DNA from: a virus
Taxonomy: Duplodnaviria; Caudoviricetes
Strand: one strand, 5' to 3'
IMG/VR virus record: IMGVR_UViG_3300042914_002678
Length of the DNA stretch: 64,000 nucleotides
Position numbers and translations under genes: made by a program. The notes under the pieces are model-generated. The model had not been told where the DNA came from. It did not search any database and saw only the letters and a list, made by a program, of their open reading frames with translations. Of the stretch, positions 34,249 through 63,826 are shown piece by piece; the stretch's first letter is position 1, and every line of letters begins with the position of its first letter.

Positions 34249-34437
34249 ATGTCCGTATCAGAAGAACTACTTAATGCTGTTGAAGCTTGGAAAGTAGAAG
34301 ACGAAAAGTTTGTTGGCGGAAATAACGCCGCAGGAACTCGTGCTCGCAAGGCACTTCAGGAAATTTCTAAACTTGTCAAGACACGTAGAACAGAAATTAC
34401 TGAAGAGAAAAACGCTCGTAAGGCAGTAAAGGCTTGA
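34249..34437 (+). CDS. Histone H1-like (Hc1-family) small basic protein
   Basis: GNNAAGTRARKALQEISKL motif typical of Hc1-like proteins; GGAG SD. Confidence 0.75.
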   Translation: MSVSEELLNAVEAWKVEDEKFVGGNNAAGTRARKALQEISKLVKTRRTEITEEKNARKAVKA

Positions 34438-34462
34438 CGGGTTGGGTTTAATACCCTATAAT
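34434..34462 (+). promoter_or_regulatory. Sigma70 promoter
   Basis: TTGACG-17 nt-TATAAT; the -35 overlaps the upstream stop codon. Confidence 0.8.
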
Positions 34463-34468
34463 ACTCTC

Positions 34469-34548
34469 ATGGGCAGGCGAGGTTCCAACCCTCCTTTAAG
34501 ACCCGCCCCTTCCATGCCTATCATAGAAGCACAAACAGGAAGGGTTAT
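34469..34548 (+). ncRNA. Candidate pseudoknotted small RNA
   Basis: ATGGGCA/TGCCTAT and GGCG/CGCC stems, crossed by CCTTCC/GGAAGG. Confidence 0.5.
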
Positions 34549-34620: not shown

Positions 34621-34649
34621 TTGACAATCTAAGTTAAATACTTTATGAT
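34621..34649 (+). promoter_or_regulatory. Sigma70 promoter
   Basis: TTGACA-17 nt-TATGAT. Confidence 0.8.
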
Positions 34650-34655
34650 TGTCTC

Positions 34656-34726
34656 GTGAGTAACAGAGGGTCTAAACCTTGTGTAATCCTCACACACCTC
34701 CTCTAAGAGAACTTATAGGAGGTCTT
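34656..34726 (+). ncRNA. Yfr1/Yfr10-like small RNA candidate
   Basis: Stem-loop, unpaired AATCCTCACAC (10/11 match to the Yfr1 motif ACTCCTCACAC), then stem-loop ACCTCCT...AGGAGGT; own promoter. Confidence 0.65.
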
Positions 34727-34728
34727 AT

Positions 34729-34857: not shown

Positions 34858-35316
34858 ATGGAATGTGTAACCTGCGGAAAACAACATAATAATCCAAAAT
34901 TTTGTAGTAGAAGTTGTGCCGCTAAATGGACTAATGTTCAACACCCTAAAAGGAAAAAAATTAATTTTCCAAATAAATGCGAAATGTGTGGTGTAGAAAT
35001 TGATTATAGAAGTAAAAGATGTATAAAATGTTGTGGTTCTTTGGGTGATATGACATTAAAAGAAGCAATTTATGAAAAACATCACAAGTCTTCTGCTTTT
35101 GCTTTAATTAGGACAAGAGCAAGAGCAGAAGGAAAAAAACTTGGATTTACCAAATGTTGCAAATGTGGGTATGATAAACATATAGAAGTTGCCCACATTA
35201 AACCAATTTCTTCTTTTAGTGAAGAGGTTATGATAAGTATTATTAATTCCAAAGAAAACATAATGCCTTTGTGCCCAAATTGCCACTGGGAATACGACCA
35301 TAACCTTTGGACTTGA
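34858..35316 (+). mobile_element. HNH endonuclease with N-terminal zinc-ribbon motifs, inserted in the tRNA cluster
   Basis: CVTC...FCSRSC, CCKCGYD...EVAHIKP...N...LCPNCHWEYD; CATAAATA late-like promoter upstream. Confidence 0.85.
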
Positions 35317-35341
35317 CATAATCTCAGAACTAGTGTAATAT
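35313..35341 (+). promoter_or_regulatory. Sigma70 promoter
   Basis: TTGACA-17 nt-TAATAT; the -35 contains the HNH stop codon. Confidence 0.75.
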
Positions 35342-35347
35342 ATAAAC

Positions 35348-35490
35348 TGATAGAGGGTAAGTCACTGTTATATCCTTATGAGGTATATCACACTTACTCC
35401 ATCAAATGTAGGAAGTGCAACACCTCTCGCTGGTTTAGACTGGATGATGTGAAAGGTGATTCTGTCCGCACATAGAAATCCCTCCTACCA
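35348..35490 (+). ncRNA. Candidate ~140 nt structured RNA ending in CCA
   Basis: Long 5' hairpin plus a multibranch 3' domain closed by GTAGGA/TCCTAC. Confidence 0.5.
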
Positions 35491-35494
35491 TTAT

Positions 35495-35567: not shown

Positions 35568-35657
35568 TTGGAAGTGATCCTGCGATAACCTCAAGAGCAC
35601 TCCTTCCAACTAAAACCTAGAATATTTCTAGGTCAGGGGGATGGCCTCCCCTGTTTC

Positions 35658-35729
35658 GCCCTTGTAGCTCAGTGGTAGAGCAACGGTTTTGTAAACCGTT
35701 GGTCGCTGGTTCAAATCCAGTCGGGGGCT
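35658..35729 (+). tRNA. tRNA-Thr(UGU)
   Basis: Cloverleaf; ACGGT-TTTGTAA-ACCGT anticodon arm. Confidence 0.95.
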
Positions 35730-35757
35730 TGACATAATACTCATTATGTCTTATACT
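35729..35757 (+). promoter_or_regulatory. Sigma70 promoter containing a perfect 8-bp inverted repeat
   Basis: TTGACA-17 nt-TATACT; GACATAAT-actc-ATTATGTC. Confidence 0.75.
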
Positions 35758-35763
35758 TTTCCT

Positions 35764-35807
35764 ATCCGTGTGAAGGAAATGTGCTGGGAGAGAAATCTCC
35801 CACTTTT
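35764..35807 (+). ncRNA. Candidate ~45 nt RNA with a segment near-complementary to the Yfr1 motif
   Basis: GTGTGAAGGA followed by a GGGAGA-GAAA-TCTCCC hairpin and TTTT. Confidence 0.4.
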
Positions 35808-35878
35808 GCGAATGTGGTGTAGCGGTAACATCCCATCCTTCCAAGTTGGTGTCACGGGTTCGATCCCCGTCATTCGCT
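35808..35878 (+). tRNA. tRNA-Gly(UCC)
   Basis: Cloverleaf; CCATC-CTTCCAA-GTTGG anticodon arm, U73. Confidence 0.93.
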
Positions 35879-35903
35879 TATAAACCGTAAAAACCGAAAA
35901 GGC

Positions 35904-35938
35904 TTGACTGATCCCAAAGGAACTGTTAAGATAAATAC
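35904..35938 (+). promoter_or_regulatory. Porin promoter: sigma70 type with overlapping late-like element
   Basis: TTGACT-17 nt-TAAGAT overlapping ATAAATA. Confidence 0.7.
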
Positions 35939-36008
35939 CGTGAAGTGATAGTGCCTCAACTACTCGCATAGTCACACATTATGTCCTATAGAACAAAAAC
36001 AAATTTTT

Positions 36009-37890: not shown

Positions 37891-37897
37891 CTTTATT

Positions 37898-37970
37898 GGG
37901 CGATTAACTCAGCGGTTAGAGTGTCTGCTTTACACGCAGAAAGTCCGCAGTTCGAATCTGCGATTGCCCA
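37898..37970 (+). tRNA. tRNA-Val(UAC)
   Basis: Cloverleaf; TCTGC-TTTACAC-GCAGA anticodon arm. Confidence 0.95.
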
Positions 37971-38016
37971 TTATAAATATTCAAAAAAGATTGAAGAAGT
38001 ATAACTGATTATAACA

Positions 38017-44979: not shown

Positions 44980-45414
44980 ATGGCGACAAGAGAACAAAAG
45001 TTAGAAGCGAAAAGACGCTACTATCAAAAGCATAAAAACAGATTAAATGAGGAATCAAGAGAACTCAATACCAGATTGAGATATGAAAAGAAAAACTTTA
45101 TCATAGAAAATCTTGGATCCAAGTGTTGTAAGTGTGGAACTACTGATTGTCTAGAAATAGATCACATCAATCCTGGACTTAAAAAAGATCAAAGATGTCT
45201 TTATGTTTGTTCTTGGGATAGGATAAAAAGTGAAATGGATAATCTCCAACTTCTCTGTAGTTCCTGCCACCAAGAAAGATCTCAGTTGCAAAAAGATGCT
45301 TCATGGTTTTATTTTAAAAATCTTTCTTTAGAAGAACAAAATAATCTAATGGAGAAATTTAAAAGAGAAGGTTCTACTTTACCTTCTTGGTGCCCGCAAG
45401 ATAAGGCACAATAA
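44980..45414 (+). mobile_element. HNH endonuclease
   Basis: CCKCG...LEIDHINP...NLQLLCSSCH; TATAAATA at 44951. Confidence 0.85.
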
Positions 45415-45423
45415 AAATTCTTG

Positions 45424-45494
45424 CTGGTGCGGATGGGGAATTCTTTCTCCGCCTGGTTTCTAATTTCCAGTCAAAGAATTGGTGGCGAGCCTGA
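45424..45494 (+). ncRNA. wcaG RNA motif
   Basis: Two UGGYG elements (TGGTG, TGGCG) flanking GCGGA/TCCGC and CTGG/CCAG stems; upstream of gmd and wcaG as described for this motif. Confidence 0.8.
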
Positions 45495-45499
45495 GTTAT

Positions 45500-63616: not shown

Positions 63617-63826
63617 ATGACTGTAACTAAAAATGAATTTGGGCAAATGAATATGTTTGCCAAAGAACCTACAATGTGGATGTCTGAGGAAGATATTGAG
63701 CGTTATGGATTCGAACCCTATGCTGAGAAAGCGGAGAAAGCAAATGGACGCTGGGCTATGGTCGGTATTGTTGCTGGGCTCATTTCTTATCTTAGCACTG
63801 GCAAACTCTTCTTCGGCATCTTCTGA
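63617..63826 (+). CDS. hli: High-light inducible protein
   Basis: AEKANGRWAMVG chlorophyll-binding motif; GQMNMFAKEP N-terminus. Confidence 0.93.
   Translation: MTVTKNEFGQMNMFAKEPTMWMSEEDIERYGFEPYAEKAEKANGRWAMVGIVAGLISYLSTGKLFFGIF

Follow-up and report, generated by a model that had tools for sequence, protein, structure and literature searches.

A leader RNA of a cyanophage tRNA-Gly gene predicted to pair with the anticodon arm of host tRNA-Val(CAC)

The element described here occupies the whole of the 78-nucleotide (nt) gap that separates the phage genes for tRNA-Thr(UGU) and tRNA-Gly(UCC), with no room left over, in a stretch of 64,000 nt (hereafter, the window) taken from IMGVR_UViG_3300042914_002678, a 98.6-kb IMG/VR cyanomyovirus record whose nearest isolate is the freshwater Synechococcus phage S-SRM01. 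We read it as a composite of an early sigma70 promoter, similar to the promoter early stem-loop (PeSL) elements of T4-type phages, and of a leader RNA of tRNA-Gly that would be antisense to host tRNA-Val(CAC) and depress the decoding of GUG codons in the host, a reading to which we give even chances. A preliminary description of the locus had proposed a tiny terminated RNA, serving as a sponge or decoy for Yfr1-type RNAs and possibly under repressor control; judging from the predicted pairing, the short RNA probably acts on host tRNA-Val(CAC) rather than on Yfr1.

Results

The segment 35765-35778 forms 14 contiguous Watson-Crick pairs with host tRNA-Val(CAC), which take in 4 nt on the 5' strand and 3 nt on the 3' strand of the anticodon stem and the entire loop between them, and past a mismatch or 2-nt bulge (35779-35780) another 4-7 pairs follow. 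When the host tRNA-Val(CAC) was compared with the whole window, this antisense segment was the best match (14/14), and the antisense match was found at the tRNA-Val(CAC) locus in 3/3 host genomes tested. The homology of the core to the tRNA stops at the anticodon arm. A 19-mer of the arm, CACTTCCTTCACACGGAAG, is present in at least 120 genomes, many of them cyanobacterial and including Synechococcus WH7803 and Cyanobium, and corresponded to the anticodon arm of tRNA-Val(CAC) at all of the loci checked (9/9); in the Cyanobium/Synechococcus family, 64/121 genomes contain the 16-mer, each of them exactly once, while its reversed control occurs in none. The tRNA-Val(CAC) gene is single-copy in Synechococcus/Cyanobium and its anticodon arm is invariant among the hosts sampled.

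Pairing energies were calculated with ViennaRNA, which ignores base modifications and tertiary structure. The duplex with host tRNA-Val(CAC) reached -33.6 to -35.2 kcal/mol, a value equalled by 0/1000 shuffles, with a net cofold gain of -17.1, as against -23.7 kcal/mol (net gain -6.5) for host tRNA-Val(GAC) and -15.0 kcal/mol (net gain 0.0) for the phage's own tRNA-Val(UAC), which the leader is predicted not to bind. Among 77 variants, chosen by their promoter only, 73 carry a perfect complement of 11-18 nt to tRNA-Val(CAC), and the duplex energies stay between -23 and -35.5 kcal/mol. The RNA hence shows what is expected of an antisense RNA, i.e., an accessible seed and a complementarity that exceeds chance and is kept among relatives, the binding itself being predicted from sequence.

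Table 1. Features of the element and of its tRNA neighbours in the window
Feature	Position	Strand	Remarks
Phage tRNA-Thr(UGU)	35658..35729	+	ARAGORN and Rfam; its final base, a T, opens the -35 hexamer
Sigma70-type promoter TTGACA-17-TATACT	35729..35757	+	Consensus 11/12; -35 at 35729-35734, -10 at 35752-35757
Stem-loop GACATAAT-ACTC-ATTATGTC	35731..35750	+	Between -35 and -10; -7.0 kcal/mol as RNA
Predicted 44-nt leader RNA	35764..35807	+	Putative 5' end A35764, 7 nt past the -10
Antisense segment	35765..35786	+	Complementary to the anticodon arm of host tRNA-Val(CAC)
GAAA-loop hairpin	35785..35802	+	7 bp, 4 G-C pairs; -11.4 kcal/mol
CUUUU linker (C+TTTT; tail CTTTTGCG)	35803..35807	+	Precedes tRNA-Gly
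Phage tRNA-Gly(UCC)	35808..35878	+	ARAGORN and Rfam; gene downstream of the leader
Phage tRNA-Val(UAC)	37897..37971	+	ARAGORN; anticodon arm CUGC UUUACAC GCAG

In the window the promoter is followed by GUGUGAAGGA / ATCCGTGTGAAGGAAATGTG, then by the GAAA hairpin and finally by CTTTT (Table 1). The element is single-copy in the window and in the 98.6-kb record, throughout which GTGTGAAG and the degenerate core occur elsewhere only at chance level, leaving no further copies or phage targets. Apart from the adjoining tRNAs, Rfam returned no match on the element either at the gathering score or at E<=10. Two other roles were considered and rejected. As an anti-Shine-Dalgarno decoy, the RNA would form with the 3' end of 16S rRNA a duplex of -8.5 kcal/mol, which 313/1000 shuffles equalled; as a coding sequence, it would belong to a 45-amino-acid open reading frame (ORF; 35746-35883) that reads through tRNA-Gly, and the motif stands before an ATG in just two related loci. 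In the viral contigs L132 and L205 the core CCGTGTGAAGGAAG is followed after 5 nt by an ATG and an open frame, and may there double as a ribosome-binding site.

A decoy of the kind first proposed would, in the manner of Yfr2, draw off host small RNAs (sRNAs) of the Yfr1/Yfr10 type and relieve Yfr1 repression, e.g., of porin mRNAs, next to a phage porin gene. Yfr2 RNAs are the natural antagonists of Yfr1/Yfr10, neutralising Yfr1 by means of a 5' motif that is nearly complementary to it, and two porins are targets of Yfr1 (Lambrecht et al., 2019; PMC6778093). The window has a gene for a phage OprB/SLH porin 130 nt downstream. Like Yfr2, the window RNA is short and has a conserved purine-rich 5' motif able to pair with the Yfr1 motif ACUCCUCACAC. 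The 9 base pairs (bp) with one bulge that had been counted against UCCUCACAC are arithmetically correct for the window copy, the Yfr1 motif is single-stranded, and the duplex with host Yfr1 (-15.8 kcal/mol, 8/1000 shuffles, net cofold gain -10.2) is possible, although modest beside the -33.6 kcal/mol obtained with tRNA-Val(CAC).

The perfect complement of the Yfr1 motif (GUGUGAGGA / GTGTGAGGA) is found in 0/77 variants, and contiguous perfect complementarity to Yfr1 across the family is 6-9 nt, as compared to 11-18 nt to the tRNA; duplex energies vary between -12 and -24 kcal/mol for Yfr1, while the pairing with the tRNA is maintained, and the common GAAGUGAAG variants disrupt the GGA part of the Yfr1 pairing. 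Unlike Yfr2, moreover, the window RNA is not recognised by Rfam, as neither Cyano-1/Yfr2 (RF01701) between 34300 and 36100 at E<=10, nor Yfr1 (RF01116) in the window at the gathering score or E<=10, gave any match, and the latter model finds Yfr1 in 3/3 host genomes. Both the phage sRNA and host Yfr1 contain the 9-mer UCCUCACAC, as the preliminary description had observed, but Rfam does not class the phage RNA that carries it (34656-34727) as Yfr1, even when the threshold is relaxed to E<=10, and this RNA pairs poorly with the leader (-12.7 kcal/mol, net -4.3 kcal/mol); a single occurrence of UCCUCACAC in the window (34687-34695), with 0.3 expected and 23/100 shuffles reaching it, is no more than chance. 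Since UCACAC is common to the Yfr1 motif and to the tRNA arm and accounts for the leftover match, the resemblance to Yfr1 is best explained as a by-product of the complementarity to the tRNA, and we regard the decoy as very improbable.

As to the 3' end, the GAAA hairpin followed by TTTT is present as described (35785-35807), and its GC-rich stem-loop is of the sort seen in intrinsic terminators; the U-tract, for which we required at least 5 T in 8 immediately after the stem, is missing, and a terminator scan made no call at the CTTTT site in the window. In 80 relatives with a short hairpin, the T-run before the tRNA counts 1 (22 loci), 2 (36), 3 (11) or 4 (11) residues, hence two or fewer in 58/80 and five or more in none. 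The base at position -1 of the tRNA is T in 80/80 and the hairpin module always abuts the tRNA, so that in the lake lineage the RNA of about 44 nt is a leader of tRNA-Gly, into which it runs, and not a terminated RNA. The leader ends exactly at the 5' end of mature tRNA-Gly (35808), with the U preferred at -1 of RNase P substrates, and a cut by RNase P at that point would set its 3' end and is the probable means of its release.

The hairpin covaries and its structure is conserved: among 60 unique relatives, 93% of the cells are paired, compensatory changes affect 6/7 pairs, and 35 double-change cells were counted, a result reached by 0/500 shuffles. The 44-nt leader is predicted to fold into an open 5' segment and a hairpin (z = -2.5), with the seed unpaired in both the minimum free energy and the centroid folds; no pairing in cis with tRNA-Gly is predicted, and the acceptor stem is predicted to be undisturbed in the precursor. 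The preliminary description was right in seeing a short RNA module that is driven by a promoter and combines a single-stranded antisense seed with a hairpin at its 3' end, and conservation of this module extends over hundreds of cyanophage contigs.

Base-pairing RNAs that arise from the processing of tRNA precursors have a parallel in Escherichia coli, where the 3' external transcribed spacer of the glyW-cysT-leuZ pre-tRNA reportedly acts as a sponge for the sRNAs RyhB and RybB. That RNA is however a 3' spacer that soaks up sRNAs, whereas the window RNA is a 5' leader whose best partner is the mature tRNA of another organism. Phage T4 also encodes stable RNAs within its tRNA cluster, namely C and D (species 1 and 2), which are 119-140 nt long, tRNA-like and of unknown function. 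They share with the leader the position of a small non-tRNA RNA among phage tRNA genes and the release by tRNA-processing enzymes (for the leader, a predicted one), but the window RNA differs in being 44 nt long and made up of a linear seed and one hairpin.

The near-consensus promoter and the perfect inverted repeat within it are both present as first described, the repeat GACATAAT-n4-ATTATGTC being the sole copy in the window at two or fewer mismatches (chance expectation 0.06). The suggestion that this palindrome is the operator of a dimeric phage or host repressor timing the expression of the RNA draws on its perfect 8-n4-8 symmetry, on its overlap with the -35 box and the spacer, and on arms that are identical among many lake phages while the loop varies. 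In a set of 50 promoters picked by the downstream motif only, and not by the repeat, the arms nonetheless differ among clades and remain complementary (GACAAGA/TCTTGTC, GACGAAA/TTTCGTC, GACAGAAT/ATTCTGTC), and even the last base of the -35 box changes along with its partner, TTGACG occurring with CGTC. Overall, 80% of the cells are paired, with 46 double-change cells as compared to 20.5 expected (0/500 shuffles) and many G.U pairs. Compensatory changes of this kind, including G.U pairs that would make no sense in a DNA half-site, fit an RNA or single-strand stem rather than a fixed protein site; one such site exists in 98.6 kb, and no candidate repressor was identified. The inverted repeat is therefore probably a stem-loop, and control by a repressor appears improbable. 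As RNA, the stem-loop would fall in the 3' trailer of tRNA-Thr transcripts.

In T4-type phages, PeSLs combine a sigma70 promoter close to the consensus with a stem-loop that overlaps it or lies inside it, mostly between -35 and -10; the stem-loop had terminator activity when tested with a reporter (Arbiol et al., 2010; PMC2839356). The window element shares with them this promoter, the position of the stem-loop, the G-T pairs, the location in a plastic, early-expressed region and the placement of a stem suited to stop or attenuate upstream transcription (Arbiol et al., 2010; Comeau et al., 2014; PMC4122927). PeSLs are nevertheless present in many copies per genome and flank variable ORFans provided with a Shine-Dalgarno sequence, while the window holds just one such element, placed between two tRNA genes, with a weak, AT-rich stem (-7 kcal/mol) and a non-coding antisense RNA after it. 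The element works like a PeSL, but because of its single copy and weak stem it is not classed as one.

Two scans of viral contigs, one keyed on the palindromic promoter and the other on the -10 box plus GTGTGAAGGAAG, delineated a family of at least 218 loci and at least 151 unique elements with one shared architecture (counts are among the matches listed): a sigma70 promoter, 6-10 nt, the core (CC)GUGUGAAGGAAGUG, a structured 3' module and a tRNA directly after. Relatives keep the promoter at the same spacing from the antisense core. Among the 151 unique elements, the upstream neighbour is tRNA-Thr(UGU) in 98, and the downstream one tRNA-Gly(UCC) in 115 and tRNA-Leu in 11; S-SRM01 carries the same spacer at L001 3138-3215, with CTCTTG as its tail. 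The 3' module exists in three forms, namely a short hairpin (~80 unique elements), an extended hairpin of ~50 nt and a four-way junction of ~70 nt, and the longer variants of nine related loci found no match in Rfam. The ~50-nt form replaces the simple hairpin in some lake phages (L005 7457-7530, minus strand; L008 262-333, plus strand; 15 more loci) and comprises a covarying outer stem, the kink-turn (k-turn)-like internal loop GCCU-GUGA-AG[stem-loop]CU-GA-GGC and a conserved UGGGUAAAUCC; it might add contacts with the tRNA. The four-way junction is almost invariant, with CUGAGAGUG ... CACUCUCA around three hairpins, and lies between the antisense core and tRNA-Gly (L016 1234-1326 and L019 2391-2482, both on the minus strand; 12 more loci).

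Marine Synechococcus phages carry the same core and hairpin as a stand-alone gene behind the capsid gene, as in Syn9 (between gp134 and gp135) and S-CAM9 (after g23), and blastn detected this form in 168 phage records; no publication on this RNA of ~43 nt was found. Its 5' core CCGUGUGAAGGAAGUG is likewise antisense to tRNA-Val(CAC), begins 5-8 nt past the -10 box and is directly followed by the hairpin. It differs in its late-type -10 box (TATAAATA or CATAAATA), its GC-rich hairpin and its U6-7 terminator, which make it a self-contained gene, whereas the window copy has a stem-loop embedded in an early sigma70 promoter, a 2-nt insertion in the core, no real U-tract and a 3' end set by the next tRNA. 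Given the terminator of these capsid-linked copies, "tiny terminated RNA" holds for the family but not for the copy in the window, which adds a leader-embedded form under a PeSL-like early promoter, together with alternative 3' modules.

The stand-alone form also bears on whether the element is a structural leader only, in which promoter and hairpin would serve the expression and processing of tRNA-Gly with no role in trans, and the antisense stretch would be either the fossil of an inverted fragment of a tRNA-Val gene, or a sequence conserved as the initially transcribed stretch or as a PeSL-style recombination site. The element always lies in a tRNA cluster, which includes an HNH endonuclease gene, a setting where fragments of tRNA genes can arise; indels are present within the antisense stretch, and the conservation of PeSL cassettes as sites of recombination extends over about 100 bp (PMC2839356). 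The core of 16-17 nt recurs nevertheless in marine phages behind the capsid gene, with a late-type -10 box, a true terminator and otherwise unrelated flanks; it always starts 6-8 nt past the -10 box, i.e., at the predicted 5' end of the RNA, its homology is confined to the anticodon arm, and there is one copy per genome, unlike the repeated PeSLs. A purely structural leader is in our opinion unlikely, though it deserves to be kept in mind.

Some further features of the region were noted. An RNA antisense to the 3' half of tRNA-Val is not present in the window, where a 12-nt match (63706-63717) falls in a coding-looking stretch. Searched against the three host genomes at E<=10, the other spacers of the tRNA cluster (34434-34548, 34621-34727, 35313-35493 and 35569-35657) gave no more than sporadic antisense hits; they have compact predicted structures, and sigma70-like promoters are found at 34621 and 35313. 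In the stretch 35904-36008 the porin gene has its own promoter, TTGACT-17-TAAGAT, and the first bases of its predicted mRNA, ACCGTGAAGTGATAGTGCC, are similar to the antisense core variant CCGTGTGAAGTGAAGTGC with TG left out, S-SRM01 having ACCGTGAAGTGACCGTGCC in the same place (L001, ~3350). The start of the porin mRNA may be a degenerate second copy of the core, or a shared start-site motif. Directly upstream of tRNA-Ile, the abiF RNA motif (RF03085) was hit at 34508-34544 with 35.9 bits, a little short of the 37-bit cut-off; at the equivalent place in a related contig (L031 6138-6174) the motif scores 44.8 bits. Cyanophage S-CREM1 is reported to carry an abiF RNA (PMC9964418). The HNH endonuclease ORF (34858-35316; Pfam HNH_2, E = 8e-9) is low in GC and sits between tRNA-Arg and tRNA-Asn, a position at which S-SRM01 lacks it. 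A wcaG RNA (RF01761), a motif known in cyanophages, lies at 45388-45496 (73.4 bits).

Discussion

We propose the following course of events. The strong early-type sigma70 promoter would produce a precursor composed of leader and tRNA-Gly, from which a cut by RNase P at the 5' end of the tRNA, and not an intrinsic terminator, would free the 44-nt RNA, with the hairpin as a stabilising structure. Its open 5' segment would first pair with the 7-nt anticodon loop of tRNA-Val(CAC) and then invade the 5-bp stem, hiding the anticodon from the ribosome and from valyl-tRNA synthetase; the anticodon is needed for decoding and is also an identity element for this enzyme. The supply of the tRNA dedicated to GUG would drop and the decoding of GUG by the host would be depressed, while the phage would rely on GUU and GUA codons and on its own unbound tRNA-Val(UAC). 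The tRNA-Val genes of related loci are in line with such a scheme, as 79/79 have the anticodon UAC and none CAC, and their anticodon stems are unrelated to the host arm.

Codon usage and host range fit a targeting of tRNA-Val(CAC), but they are suggestive only, being partly due to GC content and shared ancestry. GUG makes up 9% of the valine codons in the phage and 45-75% in eight Synechococcus/Cyanobium loci, a contrast that follows from the difference in GC content (34% vs. 60-70%) and cannot count as an independent test. Host-family members whose genomes are small and Prochlorococcus-like are without the 16-mer, and in the 12/12 checked the best match to a tRNA-Val(CAC) query was tRNA-Val(GAC); correspondingly, the element is absent from five named Prochlorococcus myoviruses checked directly, while Syn9 and S-CAM9 have it, though this contrast involves few genomes that are not phylogenetically independent. 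Counts of Prochlorococcus and Synechococcus phages obtained through a g23 search are to be taken as rough numbers only.

Further points weigh against the proposed mechanism. The start site, the release by RNase P and the stability of the leader are all predictions. A mature tRNA, with its modifications and tertiary fold, is difficult to target, the predicted complex requiring the cloverleaf to open, and the window copy and many lake variants have insertions of 1-2 nt in the antisense stretch that weaken a perfect duplex. GUG could still be read by the host tRNA-Val(UAC), so that any shut-off would be partial. Finally, the 17-mer could be the fossil of an inverted tRNA-Val fragment kept for another reason.

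The same complementarity would also serve an RNA that binds tRNA-Val(CAC) to protect or use it, either as a shield of the anticodon loop from a host anticodon nuclease or for a sensing similar to that of T-boxes. The stem I of T-boxes contains a k-turn, and the larger variants of the element have a structured module with a k-turn-like internal loop; like a T-box leader, moreover, the window RNA is predicted to recognise a specific tRNA via its anticodon. T-boxes, however, pair through 3-4 nt plus the NCCA end and switch a terminator, while in the window leader the complementarity extends over 14-21 nt, the folds show no alternative terminator/antiterminator pairing and the tRNA is that of the host. 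A duplex of 14-21 bp over the anticodon would block decoding as well, and a phage that barely uses GUG and has its own tRNA-Val(UAC) would have little need to protect tRNA-Val(CAC). We therefore consider protection or sensing a rather improbable function for this RNA.

Beyond the single locus, a more general proposal is that Synechococcus-infecting cyanomyoviruses silence tRNA-Val(CAC) by a dedicated antisense RNA and supply their own unbound valine tRNA, the lake lineage making the RNA as a tRNA leader. We advance it tentatively, and would sooner doubt than assume it.

Conclusions

It is known that phages import tRNAs of their own and are confronted with tRNA-cleaving enzymes of the host. Our literature searches brought up neither an antisense RNA of a phage or cyanophage against a tRNA nor any account of a phage RNA directed at the anticodon arm of a single host tRNA. 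Papers listing the non-coding RNAs of cyanophages name only CfrI, PhotoRC-II, wcaG, glnA, manA and abiF, and in the paper on S-SRM01 the flanking tRNAs are listed and the spacer is not commented on. A base-pairing small RNA is known as a general kind; what is new is the proposed class of target, a tRNA, and the predicted production from within a leader.

If the proposal is true, the codon-selective removal of a host tRNA, combined with its replacement by a phage tRNA, would represent a new form of viral takeover of translation, shifting it toward the AT-rich codon set of the phage, and would offer a reason for the make-up of cyanophage tRNA sets. The targets of bacterial base-pairing RNAs would extend from mRNAs and sRNAs to tRNAs. 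The lake lineage would make its silencing RNA economically, as the 5' leader of a phage tRNA, through tRNA processing and with no terminator, and tRNA leaders, commonly regarded as waste, could then be functional products.

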